A DNA stretch of 52,407 nt from a virus. Where the stretch lies: UHGV virus genome UHGV-0113213. One strand, written 5' to 3'. The position numbers and the translations under genes are program-made. Under the pieces are notes generated by a model, which was given only the letters and a program-made list of their open reading frames with translations, was not told where the DNA came from and did no database searches. Of the stretch, positions 722-46,071 are shown in pieces; position 1 is the stretch's first letter, and each line of letters begins with the position of its first letter.

Positions 722-970
722 ATGAAAAACATGCTCAAAGTGGTATTATTCGCTGCGGCTGTTGCTCTTACTGGTTGTGCTGTTGACAAAGATGCTGCAT
801 TGCACAACCTGCCAAATAGCGGAGTAATTCCTCAAGAAATTGTCTATGATGCTAATGGTCATCTTGTCTATGACACTGAAAAACTTCCATATACTGGTCA
901 ATGGTGTCATGAACTAGATCACAATATGCGCCGCATCGGTAGCCCGTCGAATTGTGTAGCTAACTACTAA
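722..970 (+). CDS. Small lipoprotein (82 aa), opposite-strand moron between side fibre and J; candidate superinfection-exclusion lipoprotein
   Basis: N-terminal signal peptide with lipobox LTGC (MKNMLKVVLFAAAVALTGCA); own terminator; position analogous to Cor/Llp-type lipoprotein morons near tail fibre genes. Confidence 0.65.
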   Translation: MKNMLKVVLFAAAVALTGCAVDKDAALHNLPNSGVIPQEIVYDANGHLVYDTEKLPYTGQWCHELDHNMRRIGSPSNCVANY

Positions 971-23643: not shown

Positions 23644-23727
23644 TTAATATTTGTTGATGATATATACGCAAGCCACAAAACTTGCGCAATATGTTAATAC
23701 TTCCAACCAGTCGAATAGCTCTTTCAT
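23644..23727 (-). CDS. Mini-gene, 27-aa hydrophobic peptide MKELFDWLEVLTYCASFVACVYIINKY
   Basis: ATG overlaps upstream stop (ATGA); hydrophobic helix. Confidence 0.45.
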   Translation of the reverse strand: MKELFDWLEVLTYCASFVACVYIINKY

Positions 23728-23867
23728 TGTTGCCCCTTGAATATATGCTTCGCTTCTCTGTAAATTAGCGCACCAGTCATTACAATCGCGTATACGCATA
23801 ACATTAACGCGACGATAAGCACGCCAGAACAAAGCAAAAACATCAGTAGATCGATAAATTCAAACAT
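23724..23867 (-). CDS. Mini-gene, 47-aa membrane peptide MFEFIDLLMFLLCSGVLIVALMLCVYAIVMTGALIYREAKHIFKGQQ
   Basis: ATG 8 nt after upstream stop (GGTGAG RBS); two hydrophobic stretches. Confidence 0.45.
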   Translation of the reverse strand: MFEFIDLLMFLLCSGVLIVALMLCVYAIVMTGALIYREAKHIFKGQQ

Positions 23868-23875
23868 AATATTTC

Positions 23876-23944
23876 TCACCAGGAGAAAACAATAACAACC
23901 AACAGTGCGCTTATAGCTATAATTAAGAAATCACTATCAGACAT
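23876..23944 (-). CDS. Mini-gene, 22-aa single-TM peptide MSDSDFLIIAISALLVVIVFSW
   Basis: Start overlaps upstream gene by ATGTCTGA. Confidence 0.45.
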   Translation of the reverse strand: MSDSDFLIIAISALLVVIVFSW

Positions 23945-24011
23945 TGATAATTACCAAGATAATAAATAACGCAACTGTACACACGATCAACATAATATCA
24001 ATAGCGTTCAT
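23937..24011 (-). CDS. Mini-gene, 24-aa single-TM peptide MNAIDIMLIVCTVALFIILVIINV
   Basis: GTGAG RBS then ATG 8 nt after upstream stop. Confidence 0.45.
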   Translation of the reverse strand: MNAIDIMLIVCTVALFIILVIINV

Positions 24012-24019
24012 TCGCTCAC

Positions 24020-24088
24020 CTACTGAGTCAGTGCTGTCATGGTAAGAACAATCGCGACAATCAGGAAAAAGAAATCAAGCCATTTCAT
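24020..24088 (-). CDS. Mini-gene, 22-aa single-TM peptide MKWLDFFFLIVAIVLTMTALTQ
   Basis: AGGAG RBS in 15-nt spacer. Confidence 0.45.
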   Translation of the reverse strand: MKWLDFFFLIVAIVLTMTALTQ

Positions 24089-24103
24089 TTTAACTCCTGA
24101 GAT

Positions 24104-24175
24104 TCAGTTAACACTTAAAAGCACCGCAACGATGACAATCACTATAATCATGCAAAAGAAGTCTGCTTCTCTCAT
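24104..24175 (-). CDS. Mini-gene, 23-aa single-TM peptide MREADFFCMIIVIVIVAVLLSVN
   Basis: ATGA overlap with upstream stop. Confidence 0.45.
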   Translation of the reverse strand: MREADFFCMIIVIVIVAVLLSVN

Positions 24176-24252
24176 CTTTTTAGCCCTCGATAAAAATCAA
24201 CAGCAATGACTACAACTACAGCCACCAGCAATAGCATTTCGTATGCGTTCAT
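24172..24252 (-). CDS. Mini-gene, 26-aa single-TM peptide MNAYEMLLLVAVVVVIAVDFYRGLKR
   Basis: ATGA overlap with upstream stop. Confidence 0.45.
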   Translation of the reverse strand: MNAYEMLLLVAVVVVIAVDFYRGLKR

Positions 24253-24347
24253 TTGATGCTACCCATAACAAGGCCGATGATAATAATTATGGCGACAATG
24301 CCTAACATCATTCCGAACATAATCGCCATCAGTTCGAATATATCCAT
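24249..24347 (-). CDS. Mini-gene, 32-aa single-TM peptide MDIFELMAIMFGMMLGIVAIIIIIGLVMGSIK
   Basis: ATG 3 nt after upstream stop. Confidence 0.45.
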   Translation of the reverse strand: MDIFELMAIMFGMMLGIVAIIIIIGLVMGSIK

Positions 24348-24350
24348 GCT

Positions 24351-24425
24351 TCAGCTTTCAATGAATATCATGATCGCCAGCCATACGGCGACGCATAAGG
24401 AAAGGATGATTAGCGGGTCAATCAT
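24351..24425 (-). CDS. Mini-gene, 24-aa single-TM peptide MIDPLIILSLCVAVWLAIMIFIES
   Basis: GGTGGGG RBS, ATG 4 nt after upstream stop. Confidence 0.45.
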   Translation of the reverse strand: MIDPLIILSLCVAVWLAIMIFIES

Positions 24426-24429
24426 ATTT

Positions 24430-24540
24430 TCACCCCACCAAATACTTGATATATACGTTTATCAGCGCAACTATAATAGAACCAGCAAGAAACACAGAAA
24501 CGCCGATTAATACGGCAATGATGTAAGCGGCCATAATCAT
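24430..24540 (-). CDS. Mini-gene, 36-aa membrane peptide MIMAAYIIAVLIGVSVFLAGSIIVALINVYIKYLVG
   Basis: TAATG overlap with upstream stop. Confidence 0.45.
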   Translation of the reverse strand: MIMAAYIIAVLIGVSVFLAGSIIVALINVYIKYLVG

Positions 24541-24602
24541 TACTTCCACAACAAAAACAATATTACAGCCGCCGCCATTCCGATAAATAAATAAGCGTCC
24601 AT
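24540..24602 (-). CDS. Mini-gene, 20-aa single-TM peptide MDAYLFIGMAAAVILFLLWK (first of array)
   Basis: ATG 2 nt after stop of HExxH gene, GAGG RBS inside that gene. Confidence 0.45.
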   Translation of the reverse strand: MDAYLFIGMAAAVILFLLWK

Positions 24603-25526: not shown

Positions 25527-26015
25527 TTATTCTTTACGCAAGCACTGCGTTTTGATGTAGTCCTGTAGGCCAGTGATCTGTGCGTCTTTTATTTTTAGTT
25601 GTTCTCTGAGGGATAGATAAGCCGATTTAGCGTCGGCAGTAGGTTCGCAGGTGGCTCCATCAATGCGGCTGGAGGTTCCGGTATTACTGTCTGTTCGCAT
25701 TGGCACGGCGTTGACGCGCAACCGGATAGTACCGTTATCAATGCCAGTGCGCAGATCGGCAATGTCAGATCTGATAGCTTTAATCTCATCGTGATACCTC
25801 TTATCAAGTTTTGACAGTTCGGCGTTTCGCTCCTTCATCTGCTGAATAGTGTTACTTGCTGTCTTCAGTGCGCCTTTCGTCACCGTGACTTCTTCCTGTA
25901 ACCTTGTCGCCTCACCCTGGTAATAACACGTTACGGCGGTTAGTCCGGCAATAATGCAAACAACAGCGGCGATAATTAACGCCTTCACCTTGTCCACGTT
26001 TCCCCCCATTCGCAA
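25527..26015 (-). CDS. Rz: Rz-like i-spanin
   Basis: N-terminal TM helix, coiled-coil periplasmic domain, C-terminal Cys; contains embedded Rz1 in +1 frame; overlaps endolysin end. Confidence 0.8.
25595..25789 (-). CDS. Rz1: Rz1-like o-spanin lipoprotein embedded within Rz
   Basis: [24 protein letters not shown] lipobox followed by Pro-rich short mature peptide; embedded in Rz reading frame +1. Confidence 0.8.
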   Translation of the reverse strand: MRLKLSDLTLPICALALITVLSGCASTPCQCEQTVIPEPPAALMEPPANLLPTLNRLIYPSENN

Positions 26016-26476
26016 ACGGCATATTCAACATCTCGGCGGTTTACCAGGCCTTGCCACTTCTTACCACCAGCGTATACCCAGCGTTTAAGCTGTGCGCACG
26101 CCTCTGATTTCTTACCGTCATTGAGTAGCTTTAATAAGGTTGATGTTTTGAAGTTGGTTGCGCCTACGTTATAGGCGAATGAATAAAGCGCAGCGCGGGT
26201 AAAATCTGATATTTCGACTTTGATATATGGGTTAATCGCTTTTGCGGTTTTGTGGAGATCTTTGTTTAACAAAGTATCGCATTCTGATTGCGTGTAAGTC
26301 TTACCAAGCATGATGTCTTTTCCGGTGTGACCATAGCAAACAGTCCATACACCGATAACATCACGATAAGGATCGTACTCCACGCCCTCTAATGGTTTAA
26401 CCATCACAGCCGCAATAGCGATCGCCCCACCAGCCGCCGCAGCAATAATTTTATTCTTCAGCGATTGGCTAATCAT
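25985..26476 (-). CDS. SAR endolysin (T4-type lysozyme fold, GH24-like)
   Basis: N-terminal signal-arrest-release segment [17 protein letters not shown] then E...D...T catalytic pattern ([23 protein letters not shown]); start at ATG 26474-26476 one nt after holin stop. Confidence 0.85.
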
Positions 26477-26477
26477 G

Positions 26478-26678
26478 TTACTTATTCCCCATTCGCGCGT
26501 CGTGTTCCTCTTGCGCTCGCTTGTTCTCCTGTGATTTGAAGTAATAGTTAACGGCAAATGTGCCTATGGTTGATAAGATACCCACAAAGACAGCAATATC
26601 ATTAATGGTTATCGCGCCGAAAAAAGCAGTTACGGCCCCGGTCACATACGCGCACGCCTCCCGTATTCTGTCGAACAT
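26478..26678 (-). CDS. Holin (pinholin-like, class II)
   Basis: 66 aa, two hydrophobic helices, charged C-terminus; GGAGG RBS; directly upstream of SAR endolysin. Confidence 0.7.
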
Positions 26679-26783: not shown

Positions 26784-26966
26784 CTACAAATCACTAACTT
26801 TCACCAAATCGCCATTATCAAGCCAGATTTTAATTGTTTCTCGCGTCGTCTTGATGATTGGCGCTACCCACTCACCATCGCTAACGCAAACGCGAATATC
26901 ACCACCCTCTATGCGATAAAACATCTTGTCGATTAGTGTTACGGCGTATATACCATCTTCAATCAT
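26784..26966 (-). CDS. Small protein (60 aa); possible distant member of small paralog family
   Basis: ORF coupled to neighbour; GIYAVTL and SDGEW motifs. Confidence 0.4.
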   Translation of the reverse strand: MIEDGIYAVTLIDKMFYRIEGGDIRVCVSDGEWVAPIIKTTRETIKIWLDNGDLVKVSDL

Positions 26967-27157
26967 TTCTTGCGCTCCTTAATAACCCTTTTGATCTGCG
27001 CGCGCGCGGCATCTACGAGAGCAATAAACACCGCTACAGGCCAGAAAGGAATCTCAAGACCACCACGATCGAGATCATTAGATTTGATAAAACAAGACAT
27101 CAGGATAGCGCCAGCAATATAAAGGAGAAACACAGCAATGATAAGACATTCAATCAT
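26963..27157 (-). CDS. Small membrane protein (64 aa, two hydrophobic segments, basic C-terminus)
   Basis: MIECLIIAVFLLYIAGAILMSCFI...; start overlaps upstream gene by 8 nt. Confidence 0.45.
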   Translation of the reverse strand: MIECLIIAVFLLYIAGAILMSCFIKSNDLDRGGLEIPFWPVAVFIALVDAARAQIKRVIKERKK

Positions 27158-30835: not shown

Positions 30836-31031
30836 CCTTCATTCTGGAAAGCTGCATGATATTCATCGTGTAGCCGTTGTCAGAGAAAAGCCACTCCGCA
30901 GCCTTGCGACGAAAAACAATATCATCATGGTTACGTGTCCATGTAGCTATCACAACGCGTTTCCCGTTAGTGGCGAACATAGATAACGCGTTATCAACTA
31001 CGTCGATAGCCTGCCAGATTTTTAGTTCCAT
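30801..31031 (-). CDS. Hypothetical protein (76 aa)
   Basis: ORF in operon. Confidence 0.4.
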   Translation of the reverse strand: MELKIWQAIDVVDNALSMFATNGKRVVIATWTRNHDDIVFRRKAAEWLFSDNGYTMNIMQLSRMKDEKLVDSYTTA

Positions 31032-36517: not shown

Positions 36518-37057
36518 TTATTCATTTTCTGCACCTCTTGCATATAGCTCTTTACGTGTTATCTGCGTGAAAATACATTCATGTCTGCATCGTGGATGCC
36601 AGATCAGGAACAAGCTCCCCTTATTGTTCCCGCTTACTGGTTTCCCTGTTGCAGCATTGATAAACGCCAGCCGCCCGCGCGTGATTAATCGGCATTCGTT
36701 TGCCGTCTCCACGCCGTTCATAAACCAGCTAACAGAAATGTCAGCGGGCAATAACATTACGCATCCGATATGATTTCGGCTGTGTTCAAGCGCCGCTTTA
36801 TCAACGAATGGCCCCGGATTAGAATATGGCGGATTCATCCAGACATACTCACCAGGCATCGCCACCGCTCCCCACGGATAATGGAGCGTGTCCATTTCTT
36901 CGGTTATATATCGCGGTATTAATGCGTTTGCCTTGTTTGCCGCCACATCCGCGACGAACTCGAATTCTCGATCCATTCCTCTAAAAACGGGTTTTGGCGT
37001 TTGCCATAAGTCCTTTATTTCTTTCGGCGTATGGCTGCCGCCGTAATCATTTTTCAT
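36518..37057 (-). CDS. Phage-type DNA N6-adenine methyltransferase
   Basis: Motif WMNPPYS (NPPY catalytic motif), size ~180 aa typical of phage Dam family. Confidence 0.75.
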   Translation of the reverse strand: MKNDYGGSHTPKEIKDLWQTPKPVFRGMDREFEFVADVAANKANALIPRYITEEMDTLHYPWGAVAMPGEYVWMNPPYSNPGPFVDKAALEHSRNHIGCVMLLPADISVSWFMNGVETANECRLITRGRLAFINAATGKPVSGNNKGSLFLIWHPRCRHECIFTQITRKELYARGAENE

Positions 37058-37066
37058 TACGCCCCC

Positions 37067-37555
37067 TTAGAAATAATCCTGATCTGTTCCCCAGCGGTTA
37101 TTCAGATACCCCACCAACCACACAAAACGCTCAATACTGATTAGCGGGGCGACCTTGCGATAATGCTTATCTAATATCAGCCGCGTGGCTTTATCGCTGT
37201 AGCCGTTCTTCTCTACCTCCGCTTTGCAGGCCGAAAGCGCGGCGCGGGCGGCAGTCTTTACGGCGTTAAATTGCGGCTCTGACATATTGAATAAGGCCAT
37301 AGGATCACCATGTGTCAGTCCAATCCGGCGCGGCAGTCCAGCAAAAACCAATGAATGCGCTAACAGCCAATAAAGCGCGGGCTGCAAAAAGAATATTCCC
37401 AATGTCGTTAAATTCAGGAAGCGACCACGTAATAAACATAGCCCCAGCATAATAACACCGATAACAGTCATGGCCGCCAGGAAAACAAAAAGCGTAGCCA
37501 AAAGCCACGCCCCCAACCAGTTAAAAAAGCTCTTAAGCATTTTAAACGTCCTCAA
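37067..37555 (-). CDS. Membrane protein (162 aa, N-terminal TM helices)
   Basis: ORF in operon; hydrophobic N-terminal half. Confidence 0.45.
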   Translation of the reverse strand: MRTFKMLKSFFNWLGAWLLATLFVFLAAMTVIGVIMLGLCLLRGRFLNLTTLGIFFLQPALYWLLAHSLVFAGLPRRIGLTHGDPMALFNMSEPQFNAVKTAARAALSACKAEVEKNGYSDKATRLILDKHYRKVAPLISIERFVWLVGYLNNRWGTDQDYF

Positions 37556-37745
37556 TTACCCCGCCTTTCACACGCTCTTTAATATCCCATACGTGAGGCT
37601 TGCATATTTCCTGATAATAGTGATCCGGCCTGCTGCCGAAATACCATTTGCCATCCATATAAAAATAAACGCCAGAATAATTTCCTGGCGCTGCCTTTGT
37701 TGCTGCTTCTGGAATTTTCCATTCCATGTAATGTTTAAATTTCAT
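37542..37745 (-). CDS. Hypothetical protein (67 aa)
   Basis: ORF in operon. Confidence 0.4.
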   Translation of the reverse strand: MKFKHYMEWKIPEAATKAAPGNYSGVYFYMDGKWYFGSRPDHYYQEICKPHVWDIKERVKGGVIEDV

Positions 37746-37929
37746 GAGTTTTTAAATAACCCCTTCTGAATGCTTTGATGTAAAGTCCTAGCCTTCTTAT
37801 ATGCTGAACGCCATCAATGATGCGCACTAAATAAATTGCACCGTTTGTGTCAGATACAAAATGACAGCCAAAACCAATACCAACCAACTTCAGGTTGTCA
37901 GGTATTCTATAATCAGTTTTCTGTTCCAT
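37735..37929 (-). CDS. Hypothetical protein (64 aa)
   Basis: ORF in operon. Confidence 0.4.
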   Translation of the reverse strand: MEQKTDYRIPDNLKLVGIGFGCHFVSDTNGAIYLVRIIDGVQHIRRLGLYIKAFRRGYLKTHEI

Positions 37930-37932
37930 GCC

Positions 37933-38025
37933 TCACCTCATATGGTATTCAATAAACCACCTGATAAACAGACATAAGGCAATAAAACCCCAGCAACAGC
38001 ACATATAAAACAATGTGTCGTCCAT
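37933..38025 (-). CDS. Mini-gene, 30-aa hydrophobic peptide MDDTLFYMCCCWGFIALCLFIRWFIEYHMR
   Basis: ATG 2 nt after upstream stop, GAGG RBS; next gene starts 3 nt after its stop. Confidence 0.4.
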   Translation of the reverse strand: MDDTLFYMCCCWGFIALCLFIRWFIEYHMR

Positions 38026-38027
38026 AA

Positions 38028-38246
38028 TTAAGCCTCAATAACACCGTAATCGAACGTGCCTAAATACCGTTCGATACTTACAACCTCAATACCATCAATG
38101 CACCGTTTCCACACAGACACCTGGCTTTCATTTTCTCTGAAGTGCATATTAGAAAGCACTTCATCGGCTGGGTAGCCTTTCCCGGCGACGTAGGCATCGT
38201 GACCTACGCCACCTTCTACGCAATAAAGCATCAATTCGCGTTCCAT
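38028..38246 (-). CDS. Hypothetical protein (72 aa; start at MERELML)
   Basis: GGAGGAAACAAG RBS before internal ATG. Confidence 0.4.
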   Translation of the reverse strand: MERELMLYCVEGGVGHDAYVAGKGYPADEVLSNMHFRENESQVSVWKRCIDGIEVVSIERYLGTFDYGVIEA

Positions 38247-38344
38247 CTTGTTTCCTCCGTGCCGTAAACCTCTTAATTTCAGTTTACAAAACGGATATGC
38301 GATCGCAATACAAAATGTATATTTATGTGATCGCAATCACGCTG

Positions 38345-38965
38345 TTAATGCAGTACACGTTTTTCCTGTTCATGAATAGGCTGTGCACTTTTCATTGCTT
38401 CGTTAAGCGTAGCTATAGCCGCCTGTACGCCGAATTCATTAGCGCGCATATCATCGCCAACAAATTTTCCGTAAAGCACCGGAATAAACGCCTTAACGTT
38501 CACTTCTTCGTGTCCTTCCTCAATAAATTTCTGCAACATCTTAACCTCAAAGACCTTTTTCATCAGGCCGCGCATAGAATGCAGTGAAACACTGCCAAGC
38601 AGATCCTTGTTCAACGGGAAAATAACAGCACTTCCGAACGCGAGCGGATCAACATCTTCCGGCACTGGTGCGCGTCCGAATTCCTCCTCCATGCGTCTTA
38701 CGAAAGTGAGGCAGAACACATAACGCGCTACCGATGTTTTTTCTTCCATGCTTAAAGACACGTAATCGCGGATTGATGCATTCATCATAATATCGACAAT
38801 CTGTAGCGCCAGATTTAAGTCACTGTCATACACTCCTGCTTCCATATCTTTTAAAACTTCGTGATAATCCTTAGTTACCACTTCGTGAAAGCTCGCGTCC
38901 TCTGTGTAGCGAGTAATTAACATGCCTTCGCTGCCGAGTGAATAAGCCGTTTTGATATTGTTCAT
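38345..38965 (-). CDS. Hypothetical protein (~206 aa)
   Basis: Start moved to MNNIKTAYS with AAGGG RBS. Confidence 0.45.
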   Translation of the reverse strand: MNNIKTAYSLGSEGMLITRYTEDASFHEVVTKDYHEVLKDMEAGVYDSDLNLALQIVDIMMNASIRDYVSLSMEEKTSVARYVFCLTFVRRMEEEFGRAPVPEDVDPLAFGSAVIFPLNKDLLGSVSLHSMRGLMKKVFEVKMLQKFIEEGHEEVNVKAFIPVLYGKFVGDDMRANEFGVQAAIATLNEAMKSAQPIHEQEKRVLH

Positions 38966-38976
38966 AATATTTACCC

Positions 38977-39309
38977 TTATAGTGGATGATGCCATTTCAT
39001 TTCAGTTTCTGAATTAAACGGGTTTCCTTCGCTTGAAAGGAATAAATCACGCTCCCGTTTCAGTTCTTCCGGGCTTATTTCTATTTCATCAATCTGACCG
39101 AACGATCCAGGCATCATCCGTTTTAAATCGGATAGCGGACGCATAAGGCCGCAGCCACGTAACAGCATGTCTATAGCGAATTGTCTACGCCCTGCTGCAT
39201 CATTAAAGCGACGCGCCCACGGGACACACACAATCCGGCGTTCGAACTCAATAAATAGTGATAGCTTGTTAGTCTGACTATCATAGGCCTTATGTAATTT
39301 AATTTTCAT
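38977..39309 (-). CDS. Hypothetical protein (110 aa)
   Basis: ORF in operon. Confidence 0.45.
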   Translation of the reverse strand: MKIKLHKAYDSQTNKLSLFIEFERRIVCVPWARRFNDAAGRRQFAIDMLLRGCGLMRPLSDLKRMMPGSFGQIDEIEISPEELKRERDLFLSSEGNPFNSETEMKWHHPL

Positions 39310-39490
39310 TTAACACCTCAACATATTGTTCAAGATGCCATCTCCCCACCTCATCATCTTCCTCATCAAATAATATTACTTGACCACCAGGCAAAAAAGA
39401 AAAGGCAGCTATAATAAACTCATAGCCATACCAAGTGCGGATCTTCTCACCGCCTTTCAGGTGTTTTACTTTCACTAATTTTATAGCCAT
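39299..39490 (-). CDS. Hypothetical protein (63 aa)
   Basis: ORF in operon. Confidence 0.4.
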   Translation of the reverse strand: MAIKLVKVKHLKGGEKIRTWYGYEFIIAAFSFLPGGQVILFDEEDDEVGRWHLEQYVEVLNEN

Positions 39491-39753
39491 ACGCCGTACA
39501 TCCCATTCAGCCCGGCAAACAATTTCCGCCAGTGGTCTTCAACATAATCCCGGAACGGCTTAACGCGAACATTGCGGGCCTTCAGTTCAATCTTGTCAAA
39601 GAAACGAGGCTCAATAATCGTTCCATCCAGATATTTAACCAGGATCGGGCGCTCAAGATCGTTATATGTCTTGTTCAGCACAACCAGACCAGGGTCGCTA
39701 CGATATTCTGGCAAAACAACAAGATCGCCATCTTTTGCATTCCAAGTAACCAT
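39481..39753 (-). CDS. Hypothetical protein (~90 aa)
   Basis: ATG overlaps upstream mini-gene stop (TGATG). Confidence 0.45.
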   Translation of the reverse strand: MVTWNAKDGDLVVLPEYRSDPGLVVLNKTYNDLERPILVKYLDGTIIEPRFFDKIELKARNVRVKPFRDYVEDHWRKLFAGLNGMYGVWL

Positions 39754-39872
39754 CACATCGCCCCTTTACAAATAAAGCTAATCACCGCAGCAAGTGCGCC
39801 GCAAAACACAATCGTAAACAGGAAACAAATAACGCAAAAAGCGACCCTTACAATATTCTTGCAAACCTTCAT
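39753..39872 (-). CDS. Mini-gene, 39-aa Cys-rich membrane peptide MKVCKNIVRVAFCVICFLFTIVFCGALAAVISFICKGAM
   Basis: ATG 3 nt after upstream mini-gene stop. Confidence 0.4.
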   Translation of the reverse strand: MKVCKNIVRVAFCVICFLFTIVFCGALAAVISFICKGAM

Positions 39873-39875
39873 AAC

Positions 39876-39995
39876 TCACCCCAACAATGCAACAATTAAT
39901 TCAGCAATAAAAACGGCGACATAAAAAGAAGCTGTGATATAAATCACCCCAATAACGAAGGCGGCGGCTAATGCCGCAATTTTTACCATGCTCAT
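39876..39995 (-). CDS. Mini-gene, 39-aa membrane peptide MSMVKIAALAAAFVIGVIYITASFYVAVFIAELIVALLG
   Basis: ATGA overlap with upstream gene stop. Confidence 0.4.
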   Translation of the reverse strand: MSMVKIAALAAAFVIGVIYITASFYVAVFIAELIVALLG

Positions 39996-40231
39996 TTATC
40001 AGCCTCCGCAATGAACTTATCAAGCCATTTGTTATTGGCCAGGCGTTCGGCATCTTCGCCAAATGTTTTACGTTCGCTTAATTCCTTGCGCGTTGGTATA
40101 GGCCATTTATCGTGCCACCCGGCAGACGTTTCGAACTCATACAGGCCGCCGTTAAAAGTGACATAGTCATCAGATGAGTCAGGCAGCTCTTTATCAACAT
40201 CTTTTTCTTCGATCATGATTTGATACCTCAT
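39992..40231 (-). CDS. Hypothetical acidic protein (79 aa)
   Basis: ORF in operon. Confidence 0.45.
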   Translation of the reverse strand: MRYQIMIEEKDVDKELPDSSDDYVTFNGGLYEFETSAGWHDKWPIPTRKELSERKTFGEDAERLANNKWLDKFIAEADK

Positions 40232-40509
40232 TAATCGTTAATAACCTGGCCCATACGCCCGCGATATTTGCGCATACGTGGATCGACATATTCAGGCCAG
40301 TGCATATCCGGTTTTCTTTGCAGCGGATAAAAACTTGCCTGCCAGTTGTCGAACCATATTTGTTTTGCGTACAGGTCACTAAATCTTTTCGCCATCCGTT
40401 CCGCTGCCGTGCCGCATAAAAAAAGCCCGCGATCGATTTGATCACGGGCTTCTTTTAATACTTGCTCTTTTGTTCGTGGCGGTGGTGGCGGTTTTAGATA
40501 ATCAACCAT
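40231..40509 (-). CDS. Hypothetical protein (92 aa, poly-Pro near N-terminus)
   Basis: ORF in operon. Confidence 0.45.
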   Translation of the reverse strand: MVDYLKPPPPPRTKEQVLKEARDQIDRGLFLCGTAAERMAKRFSDLYAKQIWFDNWQASFYPLQRKPDMHWPEYVDPRMRKYRGRMGQVIND

Positions 40510-40524
40510 CGCTAACCTATTGGA

Positions 40525-40929
40525 TCAAAACGGGATATCGTCATCAAAGTCCATCGGCGGATTATTCCCGTTATTATTCTGCTGCTGCGGAGGCGCTTTC
40601 TGCTGCTGGCCTTGTTGGTTAACGTTCATGAATTCAAATTCGTTAACCGCCACTTCTACCGCCGTTCCCTTCGTGCCGTCGTTCCGGTCATATTGCCGAA
40701 CATCCAGGCGACCGCTTACCACTATTTTTCCACCCTTGCGGATATGTGGCGCTAATTTTTCCGCACGCTCACCAAATACCAGGCAAGTGACCCACATTGT
40801 CCGCTTATTATCGCCGTAGCCATTCGTTACAGCTAACGGAAAACTACCAATCGCTTTCCCGTTTTGTGTGTAGCGAACCTCCATATCATTACCGATATTC
40901 CCGCCCAGCGTGATTGAATTTAAACTCAT
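40525..40929 (-). CDS. ssb: Single-stranded DNA-binding protein
   Basis: OB-fold-like N-terminal region, Gln/Asn/Pro-rich linker, acidic C-terminal tail DFDDDIPF. Confidence 0.85.
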   Translation of the reverse strand: MSLNSITLGGNIGNDMEVRYTQNGKAIGSFPLAVTNGYGDNKRTMWVTCLVFGERAEKLAPHIRKGGKIVVSGRLDVRQYDRNDGTKGTAVEVAVNEFEFMNVNQQGQQQKAPPQQQNNNGNNPPMDFDDDIPF

Positions 40930-41573
40930 TAACCCATCTCCCCGTTAAGCTCTGCTACCCGGATGTCATAAACATCTTTTGCCTTGATTCGATGTTCCGA
41001 TCCTTCCGGTAGTAATTTCCAGCATTTGCCAAATATTTCACGCAGCTTGTTAGCGTCCTGCGCTTTCGCTGCTGCATCACAGAAACGTGCTAATACTTCA
41101 TCAGGATTTGGCGGCGCTTTCTGCTGCTGTGGTTGTTGTTTTGGTGGGTTTTTCTGCTGGCGAGGCTGCTGGCCTGTCTGCTTAGCGTATGCGTCAGTAT
41201 CAGGATCTCGCGCATCATCAATGCAGAATAAACCGTTCAAAGCGTATTTTCGCGCGTAACTTGATGTCGCACCTGTTAGCTGGCTTGCGTCCATTCCCTT
41301 CTTGCTTTCTTCTTCCCTGGCGTAAGCCGTTACCGCTATTTCGTCTTCACCGTCGCTTAGCGTCGCCGTAGCTTTCACATAATAGCGATTGCCGATCAGG
41401 ACAATTTCATCGCTTACAGTCAGCGTAATACTTTGAAGCAGTGGTTTAACCGCCTCTAAAATATCCTCCGCCGACCTGTAATTATATCCACCAAAATTAT
41501 TACGCTGATTTTTCGGCGCGTTCAGCGTTTGCTGAATCGTCCATAGCTTTTTATGTAACTCTGTTTTCACCAT
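40929..41573 (-). CDS. erf: ERF-family single-strand annealing protein
   Basis: N-terminal motifs NFGGYNYRSAEDILEAVKPLL typical of Erf; Gln/Pro-rich C-terminus; adjacent to SSB. Confidence 0.7.
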   Translation of the reverse strand: MVKTELHKKLWTIQQTLNAPKNQRNNFGGYNYRSAEDILEAVKPLLQSITLTVSDEIVLIGNRYYVKATATLSDGEDEIAVTAYAREEESKKGMDASQLTGATSSYARKYALNGLFCIDDARDPDTDAYAKQTGQQPRQQKNPPKQQPQQQKAPPNPDEVLARFCDAAAKAQDANKLREIFGKCWKLLPEGSEHRIKAKDVYDIRVAELNGEMG

Positions 41574-41689
41574 TTAATCTCCCGTGCTGTTAACACTATG
41601 TATAAGGCTTTATTCGCGGCGCTCCACATTTCGGCATCGTGAAGCATTTCCGCTACTGCCAGTTTGAATTGAAGCGCCTGAATAACCAT
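41567..41689 (-). CDS. Small protein (40 aa), not in ORF track
   Basis: GGAG RBS; stop overlaps Erf start (ATGGTGA). Confidence 0.4.
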   Translation of the reverse strand: MVIQALQFKLAVAEMLHDAEMWSAANKALYIVLTAREIKW

Positions 41690-41719
41690 AATGTCATCTC
41701 CGGATGTTTACATTTTGTA

Positions 41720-42010
41720 TTAATGGTAGCGGACTTTATCCAGGGGTTTTTCCCCTAAATGGCGTGGTTGCGTTGCGTGGTAGTAGCTGCCGCTTTCATT
41801 TTCCGTATACCATTTTACTGATCCTTTGCGACGTTCTTTAATGCTATTTGGTTTGCATCTTTCCTCGTTTGCAAATCGAATAGCTTTATCCACATTGTCT
41901 GTTTTATTGATTGCAGGTGATGATTTTCTTTCGTTTTCTCTTTTTATCCTTCTGCGTTCCCTGGCATTCATTTTGCTATCACATTTACCATATATAATTG
42001 TAACGCTCAT
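41720..42010 (-). CDS. N: N-like antitermination protein (arginine-rich motif MNARERRRIKRENERK)
   Basis: First gene of leftward operon downstream of pL/nutL; ARM resembles lambda/P22 N; true start may be internal ATG at 41971. Confidence 0.55.
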   Translation of the reverse strand: MSVTIIYGKCDSKMNARERRRIKRENERKSSPAINKTDNVDKAIRFANEERCKPNSIKERRKGSVKWYTENESGSYYHATQPRHLGEKPLDKVRYH

Positions 42011-42066
42011 AATCTGATCTCCGTATATCCTTGATGATACTTAATAAAAAATCATCTTCGTTAATT

Positions 42067-42104
42067 GCCGCACTTCCAGCGGCTGACCAGATTGTTAATG
42101 AGCG
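42067..42104 (-). promoter_or_regulatory. nutL-like site: boxA CGCTCATTAACAATCTGG plus boxB-like hairpin GCCGC-UGGAAGU-GCGGC
   Basis: boxA resembles CGCTCTTA/TGCTCTTTAACAA consensus; 5-bp stem with GAA-containing loop; located between pL and N. Confidence 0.45.
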
Positions 42105-42358
42105 GCTTAACATCTTTCAACTAATCCCGCAATCATCGCCGTTCCCGGCGTGACCTTGCTCACTCCAAGCAAGCTGACTCGTCGCCTTGCGTGCGGTTTC
42201 GTGGGGGATGTAACGCTTTAAACACCCCATGCGCCTTGTTATCAGTGCCGCTTTCGGTCCCCCATCGGGGAGTTACTCCACGGTTGACAAGGTGTTAAGC
42301 CTGATTTTTAAAGTGCCAGGAAGTTGCTTTTGTTACCTGCGCCCTTCCTTTGACTCGC

Positions 42359-42387
42359 AATATACGCCCCGTAAAACATCGAGTCAA
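42359..42387 (-). promoter_or_regulatory. Candidate pL: -35 TTGACT (42382-42387), 17-bp spacer, -10 TATATT (42359-42364), with TACAAAATGGA element immediately upstream
   Basis: Read on minus strand. Confidence 0.45.
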
Positions 42388-42481
42388 TCCATTTTGTATA
42401 CTTTTTTAAAATATTTTATATGCCATTGATATTTAAATAATAAATAACGTTTTCTGTTTACGTTTTGGTGTTTTCCAGGCA

Positions 42482-42510
42482 AAGAAAAGCCGCCATTCGG
42501 CGGCTAATGT
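42482..42510. terminator. Hairpin GCCGCC-ATTC-GGCGGC after cI (U-run on minus strand; weaker on plus)
   Basis: Stem flanked by A-run/T-rich run directly after cI stop. Confidence 0.55.
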
Positions 42511-43158
42511 TTATGGCAGGTTTACGATCTTCGCATCAACCACCACGCCTATAATTTTTGATTCTGGATTCATAGGGATTGGCGGATACAGCGGATTGAG
42601 CGAACGTAAAAGCCTTTGACCTCCATCAATAATCAACTGTTTAAACGTCGGTATCTGCCCTTCCTCAAGCTGGGCTATAACCAGTTTGCCGTCAATAGCT
42701 GGCGCGTGCGGGTCCACAAGTATCATCGTCCCCGCCGGGATGCTCAACCCCTGCGGCGCGTTCATTGATTCACCTTTGGCAACCAGCCAGTAACTGTCAT
42801 CTGAACAAATAACGCTAGTCGTAACGTGTCGTAATGCTGAACGCCTTGCGTCATCCATATTGTTTACTGTGTCCTTCCAGTCAATAACCGGGTAACTACC
42901 TAAATCACGCGGCGGCACGGCCTGAAGTGTATTAGAAACAGAATCATCAATGACCATGCCATCATGTGTAACAGTAAACTGCCGACGACCAAGCTCGCGC
43001 ATAATCCGCGCAATATCTTCAAGATTTGGCTCTCGGCGACCGTTCAGCCAGTGTGACAGGCCGCCTTTAGTTATCCCCATACGATCCGCGAGTGAATCCT
43101 GGCTCATGCCCTGCGCCCGCATGAGCTGCTTTGCTAAGTCATACCATTTTGTTTTCAT
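42511..43158 (-). CDS. cI: CI-like repressor (HTH_XRE plus S24 LexA-type peptidase domain)
   Basis: N-terminal HTH (MSQDSLADRMGITKGGLSHWLNGRR), C-terminal autocleavage-type domain with Ser (GESM) and Lys (KQL) region. Confidence 0.85.
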   Translation of the reverse strand: MKTKWYDLAKQLMRAQGMSQDSLADRMGITKGGLSHWLNGRREPNLEDIARIMRELGRRQFTVTHDGMVIDDSVSNTLQAVPPRDLGSYPVIDWKDTVNNMDDARRSALRHVTTSVICSDDSYWLVAKGESMNAPQGLSIPAGTMILVDPHAPAIDGKLVIAQLEEGQIPTFKQLIIDGGQRLLRSLNPLYPPIPMNPESKIIGVVVDAKIVNLP

Positions 43159-43185
43159 GTCGCTACCCTATAACCTCAAAAAGTT

Positions 43186-43285
43186 TGATGCAAGTCACAA
43201 AACGTGTATTTTAAGCCTTGATCTTAAAATTCCATTTTGTAAACTTGCAGACAAGGTAAGGCCATACTTGCAAAGACGCAAGGAA
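43186..43285. promoter_or_regulatory. Immunity-region operator/promoter segment: inverted repeats CTTGCAGACAAG (43244-43255) and CTTGCAAAGACGCAAG (43267-43282) plus TACAAAATGG element (43232-43244)
   Basis: Palindromes read directly; exact operator boundaries not resolved. Confidence 0.4.
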
Positions 43286-43320
43286 AAAGATAACGGAAGG
43301 CACAAAAAGGCACTTACCTT

Positions 43321-43356
43321 ATGCTCTTTAAAAATCCGGTGTCGCTGCGAAGCGAA
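43321..43356 (+). promoter_or_regulatory. nutR-like site: boxA ATGCTCTTTAAAAATCCGG plus short hairpin CGCUGCGAAGCG
   Basis: boxA close to rrn-type TGCTCTTTAACAA; in leader of rightward operon. Confidence 0.45.
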
Positions 43357-43463
43357 AAACAAATATCACGCAACGGCGGGATCTGTTGAGCGGTCAGTCA
43401 CTGCTATCTAATGCTAATGGGATGCCCGCCCGCGCGTTCACTCTAACCATAGGAGAAAATGCG

Positions 43464-43730
43464 ATGAGTATAAACATGATTAGTAAAGCATGGAACGTAA
43501 AACTTAATAGCCCGATTCAAAAACTTGTCTTAATGGCTCTGGCTGAAAAGGCAGATAACAAAGGACGGGTACATGATGCATCACGCAAAGAAGTAGCCGC
43601 AATGTGTGAACTTCCTGTTCATACGGTACATGATGCCTTCGCCGCGTTAATGGATAAAGGATTTGTTTGTCGTCTTGATGCATTCAGTGATGTCTATGTA
43701 GTGATGTTGCCGGGGGGGGATGATCTATGA
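43464..43730 (+). CDS. Winged-HTH protein (HTH_36-like), first gene of rightward operon; replication-initiator N-terminal module or Cro analogue
   Basis: AGGAG RBS; segment SPIQKLVLMALAEKADNKGRVHDASRKEVAAMCELPVHTVHDAFAALMDKGFV. Confidence 0.55.
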   Translation: MSINMISKAWNVKLNSPIQKLVLMALAEKADNKGRVHDASRKEVAAMCELPVHTVHDAFAALMDKGFVCRLDAFSDVYVVMLPGGDDL

Positions 43731-44773
43731 AGTGGTTTAAGCATGACAGCGATGCGAACCGCGATGAAAAACTTCAAAACGTTTTGTTAGATTATGGCCT
43801 GGAAGGGTACGGGCTTTATTGGTATTGCCTCGAACTAATAACTTATGACGTAGATCAGCACAATCTGAATTTTGACCTACGACATGACGCGAGAATCATT
43901 GCGCGAAACGTCGGATCGACTGAAAAACGTATAGAAGAAATGATGAAATACTTCATCGAAATTGGTTTGTTTGAATGTTCTCAAGGCCACATAACTTGTT
44001 TAAAGTTATTGAAAAGGCTTGATCAATCAATGACTTCTAAAAGCGCGTACAGGGCCGCCATAAACACAGCTAAGGAGCAATTAAAATTAGAAAAGTTAAT
44101 CAATCCAACACAAAAAGGTCATGATAGGGTCATGACCGGGTCAGGAAAGGGTCATGAATTAGAAGTAGAAGAAGAAAGAGAAAAAGATATATACACTTCG
44201 TGTATTGTCGAAAATGAACAAAAAATGTTCAATCGGGATGGCGTAAACGAAGCGGCATTGCGTTGTCTTTCCTTCTACAACGACAAGGCAGGATGCAAAT
44301 GTCGTGATGCGAAGCCATTCATAGAACTACTGACAGAAACAAAAACACGTAAAGCATATACTGAGGAAGAAATCACATTAGTAATCGAGTGGGCTTTAAC
44401 GCAATGGCGTAGCCGTGGTGGAACACCTAAGCCTATCAACATTTGCCGGGTAACTAAATTTGATGGGTATCTGGCTGATGCTGAACAATGGCGCAAACTG
44501 TCAGCCACTGCAAACGCTGCCGATGTGGTGGAAGCATTTAACAGCACGTTTGACGGTCTGTTACCACATGCCGAACTGGATCGGGATCTTGAACGTAAGA
44601 TCTATGCGTTCACTGACTACCTGAAAGACAAAAGCATCACTGGCTTTATTGCTTACTTTGAGGCGTTCAAAAACACGGCTTCAGATTTTTACTTCGGCAA
44701 TGGCTTTACTGCGACACTGGATTTTCTACTTAAACCAAAAACGCTACGTGATACACGATGTGGCGCTCTTTGA
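43727..44773 (+). CDS. Replication initiation protein candidate (DUF4373-like N-terminus)
   Basis: N-terminus MKWFKHDSDANRDEKLQNVLLDYGLEGYGLYWYCLELI; ATGA overlap with upstream HTH gene. Confidence 0.55.
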   Translation: MKWFKHDSDANRDEKLQNVLLDYGLEGYGLYWYCLELITYDVDQHNLNFDLRHDARIIARNVGSTEKRIEEMMKYFIEIGLFECSQGHITCLKLLKRLDQSMTSKSAYRAAINTAKEQLKLEKLINPTQKGHDRVMTGSGKGHELEVEEEREKDIYTSCIVENEQKMFNRDGVNEAALRCLSFYNDKAGCKCRDAKPFIELLTETKTRKAYTEEEITLVIEWALTQWRSRGGTPKPINICRVTKFDGYLADAEQWRKLSATANAADVVEAFNSTFDGLLPHAELDRDLERKIYAFTDYLKDKSITGFIAYFEAFKNTASDFYFGNGFTATLDFLLKPKTLRDTRCGAL

Positions 44774-44905
44774 CCAATCACGATCCGCAAAAATCCAAAA
44801 TTACCCACAAACAACCTCACCAGCTAGCTAAATCGCATGTGGTGCTACACTTGCTTACCTTTTTGCGATTAGCTCGTTATAGAGCGTTACAGAGAGGATT
44901 TTAAA

Positions 44906-45007
44906 ATGGACGGTAAACACGTTTTCGCCCTGGCTTTTGCCATCGCTGCGGCAATCGCTGTTAACGTCGCCTTGTTCGGCGGATTGTATCTGCTAGTTAA
45001 TCCATAA
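44906..45007 (+). CDS. Mini-gene, 33-aa single-TM peptide MDGKHVFALAFAIAAAIAVNVALFGGLYLLVNP
   Basis: ATG with GAGG RBS in intergenic gap; not in ORF track. Confidence 0.35.
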   Translation: MDGKHVFALAFAIAAAIAVNVALFGGLYLLVNP

Positions 45008-45147
45008 CTACCCTTCTACCTTAAAAATCGAAAATTAGCCACATGATTGCGCTTCTGGCGCAAAAAAGACACTGCAACCTTACAAGTGGGTTACGCGGTG
45101 GGTTTTTGCGTTGTAGCGCGTCTGAGGCGTTTTAAGGAGTTGGATCG

Positions 45148-46071
45148 ATGCGCAAGTTAACACATGATGAACAGGTTGCGGCTATCGCTAAGGTTAATCA
45201 TGATGTCGAAGTGCTTGGGGAAATTGTCAATAACAGGACAAAAGTATCCTGCCGCTGCAAGGTTTGCAGTCACGAATGGTCGGCTAGACCTTACAATCTT
45301 AAAAGCGGTTACGGCTGCCCGAAATGCGCCGGAAAGATGAAATTATCACACGAAGAACAGGTTGCCGCTATCGAGAAGGTTAATTCTGATGTCGAAGTGA
45401 TTGGCGAAATAATAAACGGCGATACAAAAGCATTATGCCGCTGCAAAGTTTGTAATCACGAATGGTCGGCTAAACCTAACAACCTAAAAAACGGGCGCGG
45501 CTGCCCGAAATGTAAAGGTTTAAAAATCGCACAAAGACGAACATTATCACACGAAGAACATTTATCCGCTATCACTAAGGTAAATCATGATATTGAAGTA
45601 TTGGGAGAAATAATAAACGATAGGACAAAAGTATTATGTCGATGCAAGGTTTGTGATCATAAGTGGTCGCCTAGACCTTATGCTATTAAAAGCGGGCAAG
45701 GCTGCCCGAAATGTGCGAAACACGGTTTTTTGTCACACAATTTCGGCAAACTTTACATCATGGTTGATGATCCTGAAGTGCCTACACAAATGAAAATCGG
45801 CGTAAGCGTTAATGAGAACAAGCGAAGAAATCGGGTATTAAAAAGCGCACATAAATCAGGCGTTAGAATCCCTGATTTATGTGTCGTGAAAACGTTAGAA
45901 GGTCCAACCGAAAATATCCATGAATTAGAAAGCACGATGCATAAATATTTCAGCAATTATAAAATTAACTTTCCTGTAAAATTTGATGGCAGTAATGAGT
46001 TTTTCTATTACAGGCCGGAAGTATTCGACATGGTAGAAGAAGCATATAAAGAGATTGTTTGCTGTCAATGA
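45148..46071 (+). CDS. Protein with three tandem ~58-aa zinc-ribbon repeats and C-terminal T5orf172/GIY-YIG-like domain (307 aa)
   Basis: Repeat HEEQVAAI.KVN.DVEV.GEI.N..TK..CRCKVC.HEWSA.P.NLK.G.GCPKC three times; C-terminal GKLYIMVDD...KIGVSVNENKRRNRV. Confidence 0.55.
   Translation: MRKLTHDEQVAAIAKVNHDVEVLGEIVNNRTKVSCRCKVCSHEWSARPYNLKSGYGCPKCAGKMKLSHEEQVAAIEKVNSDVEVIGEIINGDTKALCRCKVCNHEWSAKPNNLKNGRGCPKCKGLKIAQRRTLSHEEHLSAITKVNHDIEVLGEIINDRTKVLCRCKVCDHKWSPRPYAIKSGQGCPKCAKHGFLSHNFGKLYIMVDDPEVPTQMKIGVSVNENKRRNRVLKSAHKSGVRIPDLCVVKTLEGPTENIHELESTMHKYFSNYKINFPVKFDGSNEFFYYRPEVFDMVEEAYKEIVCCQ
45157..45690. repeat. Three tandem ~175-bp DNA repeats (about 80 percent identical) encoding the zinc-ribbon modules
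   Basis: Direct comparison of the three units beginning CACGAAGAACAGGTTGC. Confidence 0.7.

Follow-up and report, generated by a model that had tools for sequence, protein, structure and literature searches.

Do the very short open reading frames (ORFs) in the early region of the virus genome UHGV-0113213 encode proteins and, if they do, what part could such proteins play in the life of the phage? The window, by which we mean the whole stretch of 52,407 nucleotides that was analysed, belongs by sequence comparison to the published mEpimmI (mEp021-like) group of temperate coliphages. Its positions 37000-46000 match the phages mEp515, mEp021, mEp010, mEp013, mEp044, mEp554 and MagusPhagus at 85-91% identity and prophages in 35 of 5,426 complete Escherichia coli genomes, the nearest being the prophage of E. 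coli M1/5 (98.8% identity across 37700-40300). The mEpimmI phages are Nus-dependent, non-lambdoid temperate siphoviruses of the human gut with an N-like antiterminator, Gp17 (PMC11893012). For four ORFs of this region, here termed A to D, we computed the reading frames themselves, their translation signals, the selection acting on them, their helical hydrophobicity and their location in the operons. Our confidence is high that A to D all code for proteins and are under purifying selection, with B the least certain of them; the assignment rests on the conservation of the frames, on third-position bias and on a low ratio of nonsynonymous to synonymous polymorphism (pN/pS). The four genes, together with the start signal of A, are as follows.

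37933..38025, minus strand: gene A, 30 amino acids, MDDTLFYMCCCWGFIALCLFIRWFIEYHMR, four Cys; ATG start
38033..38036, minus strand: Shine-Dalgarno (SD) motif GAGG of A, within the 3' end of the upstream 72-amino-acid gene; motif present in all 65 relative loci
39876..39995, minus strand: gene C, 39 amino acids, Ala/Ile/Val-rich, predicted single-pass; ATG start
39753..39872, minus strand: gene B, 39 amino acids, Cys-rich, predicted single-pass; ATG start
44906..45007, plus strand: gene D, 33 amino acids, Ala-rich, predicted single-pass, in the replication module; ATG start

All four stand at the coordinates and have the sizes given by an earlier reading made from the letters alone (the sequence-only reading), and the Cys-rich character of A, the ATGA overlap and the 3-nucleotide spacing that it reported are likewise present. 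Each has at most 50 codons, its own start and a ribosome-binding site or translational coupling, as expected of small membrane proteins. An SD-like motif precedes every start codon (GAGG at 7 nucleotides for A, GGAGG at 7 for C, GGGG at 6 for B and GAGAGGA at 7 for D). The ATG of C overlaps the stop codon of the upstream 74-amino-acid gene (ATGA), B follows C in the same frame after 3 nucleotides and the stop of B overlaps the following start (TGATG), while A begins 2 nucleotides past the upstream stop and ends 3 nucleotides ahead of the next ATG, so that A, B and C occupy nearly all of their inter-gene gaps. The genes had been described as tightly coupled, which holds for these three but not for D, whose neighbouring genes lie 132 nucleotides upstream (the replication-initiator gene) and 140 nucleotides downstream; D abuts only a 48-codon ORF (44758-44904) in a poorly conserved stretch with many indels. 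Dinucleotide shuffles of the gaps match the observed number of transmembrane (TM) ORFs in 0.6% of cases for A, 1.4% for B and C together and 3.5% for D. The signal carried by the single sequence is thus weak to moderate, suggestive and not decisive, and it is because of the comparative evidence that we take the ORFs to be more than chance.

For this comparison orthologues were gathered from seven phages, ten E. coli prophages, 42 IMG/VR contigs (with a profile of A) and 30 IMG/VR contigs (with a back-translated pattern of D); depending on the tally, D is represented by 34-36 loci and 21-23 unique DNA sequences. The outcome for each gene is given below, with the variable columns listed for codon positions 1/2/3.

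A: 65 loci, 31 unique DNA sequences; SD-like motif in 65/65; variable columns 18/11/23; pN/pS 0.27
B: 29 loci, 20 unique DNA sequences; 38-40 amino acids; SD-like motif in 29/29; variable columns 19/19/32; pN/pS 0.40
C: 30 loci, 19 unique DNA sequences; 35-39 amino acids; SD-like motif in 29/30; variable columns 22/16/33; pN/pS 0.34
D: 34 loci, 21 unique DNA sequences; always 33 amino acids; SD-like motif in 33/34; variable columns 6/5/25; pN/pS 0.10

Start, frame and stop are intact at every locus where B (29), C (30) and D (34) were found, with DNA divergence of 10-30%, and A is intact in 64 of its 65 loci, the sole truncated copy being that of the viral contig L056. The sequence-only reading had staked its genes on the conservation of their frames in relatives, and the frames are indeed conserved in dozens of diverged relatives. 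A has 30 amino acids in 26 of the 31 unique sequences and 29 or 32 in diverged alleles. Within sets of equal length pN/pS falls to 0.17 for A (30-amino-acid set), 0.21 for C (37-amino-acid set) and 0.35 for B (39-amino-acid set). In a six-frame control the annotated frame had the lowest pN/pS, and on the sense strand no other frame was open throughout the set of sequences; for B and D the antisense frame with the same wobble positions is likewise open. An antisense ORF of 130 amino acids over B was considered as a gene and rejected, its length ranging from 19 to 143 codons with differing start codons across relatives, and no antisense ORF with a start codon lies over D.

The pattern is sharpest for D, in which 25 of the 33 third positions vary over 21 sequences with a nearly invariant peptide, and of the 140-150 nucleotides that flank it on each side only 21-33% are invariant, with indels present. 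C occurs in allele classes that share about 70% DNA identity and 43-49% protein identity with frame, length and hydrophobicity kept; the window carries a rare allele, the common one having 37 amino acids (MNLAKIAALLAA...IIKLITNM). Peptides resembling A at 43-48% identity (MDAEMMFMACCWGIVAVGLFLRWVIEKYL) also keep its layout unchanged.

The predicted products have a simple design in common. Each peptide has one strongly hydrophobic segment, which scores 1.88-2.84 at its maximum over 19 residues on the Kyte-Doolittle scale, and this character is kept in alleles that are only 43-50% identical. AlphaFold2 models B (from a 33-sequence alignment) as one helix spanning residues 2-38 with a predicted local distance difference test score (pLDDT) of 87.7, and D as one helix spanning residues 3-31 with a pLDDT of 93.4. 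The membrane character proposed by the sequence-only reading is therefore well borne out, with one helix in each peptide, at the level of prediction. A is rich in Cys and Trp, with an acidic N-terminus (MDD), a TM segment at about residues 3-21 and a basic C-terminal tail (RWFIEYHMR), a distribution of charge that suggests an N-out/C-in topology; B has a basic N-terminus (MKVCKNIVR, +3) before a TM segment at about residues 10-34, which suggests an N-in topology. D presents AxxxA repeats, a GG pair and a C-terminal NP; small-xxx-small motifs are abundant in D and C, and A and B are both rich in Cys. Conservation along A follows a 100-degree helical periodicity (permutation p of about 0.005), consistent with one conserved helical face, and in the same permutation test the periodicity was not significant for B, C or D.

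Searches for relatives of the four peptides returned little beyond the phage group itself. There was no meaningful match for A to D in Pfam, PHROGs, NCBIfam or PADLOC (the common allele of C was also tried in three of these libraries), and no Rfam family or tRNA match in the window. Among 50,697 phage records searched by tblastn, A and B hit only the seven mEpimmI-type phages. Led by a 40-amino-acid orthologue, B gathers 71 clusters at 90% identity in a set of 5.8 billion proteins, all of 37-48 amino acids; an exhaustive HMMER profile search with B over 1.84 billion representatives returned its own family only, and 185,579 species-representative genomes yielded no relatives of B or D. Profile-profile comparisons of A with B, B with C and D with C detected no homology. 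By these comparisons the families tested are unrelated, non-paralogous orphans found only in the mEpimmI group.

As predictions, all four are already present in public records. PHANOTATE calls all four genes in mEp515, mEp010, mEp013, mEp044 and mEp554. In the record of MagusPhagus three of them (A, B and C) are annotated, and the manually curated mEp021 record omits all four. The exact peptides are public as 'hypothetical protein' or 'putative membrane protein' for A in 429 contigs, for C in 290 and for D in 224, with the rare allele of B in 2. The paper describing the mEpimmI phages and its supplements do not discuss A to D or mention their locus tags (PMC11893012), and the peptide sequences were not found printed in the literature searched. 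The genes are thus overlooked rather than undiscovered, being already predicted in public records. A 'toxin-antitoxin' label attached in some records to the 90-amino-acid gene 3' of B has no hidden Markov model support and was not used.

The four genes lie in two early operons divided by the repressor gene (42511-43158, minus strand), and two further features are needed to describe their setting.

42359..42387, minus strand: sigma-70-like promoter TTGACT-17-TATATT, found by a consensus scan with 10/12 matches
39961..39977, minus strand: GC-rich hairpin within codons 6-13 of C, at the position of TERM_2 in the mEp021 record (3963-3979 in locus L002)

The promoter probably drives the leftward early operon that contains C, B and A, a function we infer from its position beside the repressor gene and upstream of the gp17 homologue, in agreement with the published description (PMC11893012). 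This operon runs from the promoter through the gp17 homologue, a Kil-like gene of 40 amino acids and the genes for Erf, SSB and Abc2 to a long run of small genes, and it also carries a homologue of the membrane-active Ipe (inducer of pleiotropic effects), which in mEp021 leads to vesiculation, haemolysis and cell death on overexpression (literature cited in PMC11893012). The rightward operon contains a helix-turn-helix gene, the replication initiator (43727-44773), a zinc-ribbon protein, a 372-amino-acid protein and DnaB. Family searches with the neighbouring genes were uninformative except for Abc2, DUF7274 and the weak Kil-like match. The hairpin in C is found in all three allele classes with differing stem sequences, and the T-tract after it is not conserved.

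Comparison across relatives further indicates that A to D have the behaviour of discrete genetic modules. The final base of the stop codon of A, at 37933, is precisely where 20 of the 35 prophage matches begin, and at least eight different junction sequences follow this stop in viral contigs, which from the alignments makes the stop codon a mosaic or recombination breakpoint. C and B are adjacent in all genomes examined apart from STEC306-308, where a KilA-N gene is inserted cleanly between them (1920-2633 in locus L013, E. coli STEC308) and each keeps its own SD motif. D stays constant while the initiator upstream alternates between a Lin1244_N type and an HTH_36 type, and it always lies between the replication initiator and a variable slot, beyond which come the 372-amino-acid gene and DnaB. 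The slot holds a zinc-ribbon gene, a 351-amino-acid gene, a pRha-domain gene, fragments or nothing (loci L095-L102), and looks like a moron or insertion hotspot. None of the 35 E. coli prophage genomes lacks the 374-nucleotide region in which D lies.

Several smaller observations concern the same stretches. In protein P0015, from four contigs of the Logan assemblies, the TGA stop of A has become TGG, fusing A in frame to the downstream 64-amino-acid gene to give 96 amino acids. In the window the slot 3' of D (45148-46071, plus strand) is occupied by a zinc-ribbon gene of 307 amino acids with a weak match to PADLOC PDC-S57 (E = 1e-4). Ahead of it, at about 45085-45125 on the plus strand, stands a conserved non-coding block, GCGGTGGGTTTTTGCGTTGTAGCGCG, which is kept even when the next gene differs and could serve as promoter, terminator or nut-like element. 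Three mini-ORFs on the minus strand, 41567-41689, 41985-42113 and 42117-42230 (40, 42 and 37 amino acids), flank the gp17 gene and are not hydrophobic; the one of 40 amino acids matches phrog_34942 and, weakly, the Kil septation-inhibitor family, and the mEp021 record annotates orthologues of those of 40 and 37 amino acids. Near 37440, within 37067-37540 (minus strand), a G-run differs in length among relatives (G4 in the window, G6 in MagusPhagus, GGCG in mEp515 and mEp010) and shifts the frame, fusing the N-terminal part of a 78-amino-acid gene with two TM segments to the Ipe homologue in one ORF of 157 amino acids. Phase variation, a pseudogene or an error in sequencing could explain the difference.

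What these peptides might do can be framed from their design and setting, and here we infer translation, membrane insertion, the timing of expression and the mode of action. The reading that we favour, and hold to be rather probable, is that they are accessory one-helix inner-membrane micropeptides made from the early operons, whose helix packs on a larger membrane protein or on itself. Transcription of C, B and A would start at the leftward early promoter and proceed under antitermination by Gp17, as their operon position implies, and they would be translated by coupling to their neighbours, with the translating ribosome melting the hairpin in the first 13 codons of C; D would be co-transcribed with the replication genes and use its own ribosome-binding site. 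Once made, upon infection or induction, the peptides would be inserted in the host inner membrane, where the helix may pack against a larger membrane protein or against its own copies and so alter the activity of that protein or the state of the membrane. Their accessory role could lie in host takeover, in the exclusion of other phages or in timing, of which takeover or exclusion is favoured by the operon context with its Kil-like gene, Abc2 and the Ipe homologue. That D is nearly invariant and keeps its place within the replication module suggests that its role is more central than those of A to C.

A number of points weigh against this reading. No homology or partner indicates a specific target and the mode of action is drawn by analogy, while published proteomics on this phage group comprise virion proteins only (PMC11893012). 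Hydrophobic ORFs arise easily in T-rich DNA and the shuffle tests are only moderately significant. The selection signal is weakest for B, whose pN/pS of 0.35 in the 39-amino-acid set compares with 0.41 for the open wobble-sharing antisense frame. Of the four, PGAP annotates B alone, and that in just 2 of 10 prophages; A, C and D are missing from every RefSeq prophage record inspected. A is dispensable, since at least one prophage (L012) lacks it and the viral contig L056 has it in truncated form.

If the peptides are not accessory binding partners, they might be membrane-damaging toxins, either type I-like (Hok, TisB, Ibs, Ldr) or holin-like pores, that depolarise the inner membrane to shut off the host, to block superinfecting DNA or to kill the cell; this would be a narrower form of the accessory role set out above. 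Their size, one hydrophobic helix and charged ends are as in type I toxins, the small-xxx-small motifs (AxxxA, GG) of D and C are typical of helix oligomerisation, and both a Kil-like gene and the neighbouring Ipe with its damaging effects on overexpression in mEp021 (PMC11893012) point in the same direction. We nevertheless regard this as unlikely: apart from noise there is no match to a toxin family (Hok/Gef, Ldr, Ibs, TisB, ShoB and others) in Pfam or NCBIfam at E <= 1 and none in PADLOC, no Rfam antitoxin small RNA lies in the window (which may yet have a novel antisense RNA), the genes are coupled inside long operons rather than arranged as stand-alone cassettes of toxin and antisense RNA, and the phage has a lysis cassette with a phrog_20 holin elsewhere (25527-26645). 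A different reading makes the act of translation the purpose, the ORFs being translated spacers in which the passage of ribosomes matters (for coupling, relief of Rho-dependent polarity, hairpin masking or ribosome hand-over) and the peptides are irrelevant and quickly degraded. Selection on the peptide itself, with D almost invariant at a pN/pS of 0.10 and A at 0.17-0.27, makes this improbable, as do the helix character and length kept in alleles less than 50% identical, a conserved helical face for which a pure spacer has no need, and the lack of coupling of D to either neighbour. In favour of spacers, A, B and C nearly fill their gaps with coupling at both ends; the pN/pS of B and C (0.34-0.40) is only moderately low, and the 5' hairpin of C, annotated as a terminator in mEp021, would be melted by a ribosome.

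The remaining two explanations deny that the peptides exist as selected products. Conservation might reside in a non-coding element (for example a promoter, a terminator, or an element of nut-like or replication type), with the ORFs as by-products. The codon-position analysis largely refutes this, third-position bias and low pN/pS being specific to the annotated frames, and we consider it very improbable, even though TERM_2 of mEp021 falls inside the orthologue of C and the 374-nucleotide region of D in all 35 prophages includes the conserved block 3' of the gene. The flanks of D are far more variable than D itself, the T-tract behind the hairpin of C is not conserved and no Rfam or tRNA match was found in the window; a cis-acting element could coexist with coding, yet it leaves the pattern unexplained. 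Finally, these could be chance frames in T-rich spacers. PHANOTATE tends to over-call small ORFs, PGAP mostly omits A to D, and MetaGeneAnnotator calls about 20 fewer genes per genome than PHANOTATE (PMC11893012). That chance should leave start, frame and stop intact in nearly every relative despite DNA divergence of 10-30%, with the alternative frames closed, is scarcely credible, and the comparison of relatives refutes it.

Beyond the favoured reading of accessory micropeptides one may envisage a more ambitious one, in which the single-helix proteins, about one-eighth of the genes, form a membrane toolkit, D being a core part of replication, for example an anchor or gate of the complex, and B with C a hetero-oligomer acting on a host membrane protein. 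The idea for D comes from its near-invariance and its fixed place between the initiator and helicase genes whatever flanks it, and that for B and C from their adjacency in nearly all genomes examined. We treat it as a long shot; if true, it would define a new functional class of phage micropeptides in place of miscellaneous accessory genes.

The abundance of such proteins was itself a claim of the sequence-only reading, which had counted at least 15 membrane mini-proteins and called this an unusually large share of the genome. A uniform gene-calling pass with a Kyte-Doolittle scan, and a stricter version requiring ATG and an SD motif or coupling, gave a census that includes A to D and two further features.

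23644..24602, minus strand: late-region array of 10-11 back-to-back ORFs of 20-47 amino acids with one hydrophobic helix each, between a 194-amino-acid gene and the small terminase gene
26963..27157, minus strand: 64-amino-acid membrane protein with one strong and one weak hydrophobic segment, matching phrog_10061 (E = 1.4e-24, function unknown)

Ten of the array ORFs lie at 23724-24602 and a borderline eleventh at 23644-23727, so that with the 64-amino-acid ORF and A to D about 15 were recovered, or 14 under the stricter criteria against 2 in phage lambda. The share is large when genes are counted (about 12%) but not when DNA is measured (only 2.7%), and it is driven by the array and not by the early four; judged in the same way, early operons with four isolated mini-TM genes do not differ greatly from lambda. 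Most array ORFs start with Met, an acidic residue and the TM segment. The array peptides are individually conserved in relatives, the set varying by phage, and coverage of this stretch is only 40% in mEp515 and mEp021 and 85% in MagusPhagus; the array behaves like a cassette array. For the 64-amino-acid ORF there was no match in the relatives' loci compared (including positions 1-50000 of mEp515). The two lambda ORFs (locus L094), at 30925-31008 (minus strand) and 40567-40647 (plus strand), are unannotated, hydrophobic and 26-27 amino acids long, and one of them comes directly after ren, so that its place within the replication region resembles that of D.

Taken together, the finding is a solid annotation correction and not a new kind of system, small phage genes of this sort being common and often missed. 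Annotation gaps of 90-370 nucleotides in a common group of gut coliphages are occupied by genes under selection, and A to D give those who study small proteins four short orphans to work on, in a phage able to grow on E. coli K-12. Among them D stands out, with 33 amino acids under very strong purifying selection inside a replication module. Should a host target be found, it would add to the few phage micropeptides that are understood mechanistically.

Comparison with known systems sets the limits of this class. As holins, antiholins or spanins A to D are poorly placed, lying outside the lysis cassette (25527-26645) and without a PHROG match. Nor is there a family match to known exclusion proteins of the membrane such as T4 Imm and Sp, P22 SieA and SieB or the lipoproteins Cor and Llp, and inspection by eye shows no lipobox in A or B. 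For mEpimmI phages it is a lipoprotein to which exclusion has been ascribed (PMC11893012), and an ORF of 82 amino acids with a lipoprotein-type N-terminus (MKNMLKVVLFAAAVALTGC; 722-970, plus strand) is probably this superinfection-exclusion lipoprotein (Lpp). The late array of the same phage has members of the same size class as A to D, and A shares the layout of Met, acidic residue and TM segment found in most of them; unlike A to D, the array lies between lysis and packaging genes, varies in number among relatives and consists of shorter peptides, with no homology to A to D detected. The type I toxins Hok/Gef, TisB, IbsC and LdrD, to which may be added prophage-borne examples such as BsrG and TxpA (PMC12648545), belong like A to D to the class of hydrophobic helices of 20-50 amino acids with charged termini, whereas A to D have no antisense RNA partner in Rfam, no stand-alone cassette and no family match.

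With the small accessory genes of the lambdoid early-left region (exo-xis, Kil, CIII), beside which the single-TM lytic protein YdfD of the Qin prophage may be set, A, B and C share a place 3' of an N-type antiterminator gene and recombination genes, among short ORFs that act on host physiology. The mEpimmI phages are nonetheless classed as non-lambdoid (PMC11893012), and the characterised exo-xis, Kil and CIII products of lambda are soluble or amphipathic, in contrast to A to D, which are predicted to be transmembrane and have no homology to them. The closest parallel is with bacterial small membrane proteins of 50 amino acids or fewer, represented in E. coli by AcrZ, MgtS, KdpF and YohP (reviewed in PMC12648545). 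A to D differ from these in having no sequence similarity to them, in being encoded by a phage, in their location in early lytic operons and in having been found in one phage group only; yet they resemble them in size, in the single TM helix, in having their own start and SD motif, in being often unannotated and in lacking an enzymatic domain and, by analogy, may share with them a likely mode of action, the binding of helix to helix on a larger membrane protein.

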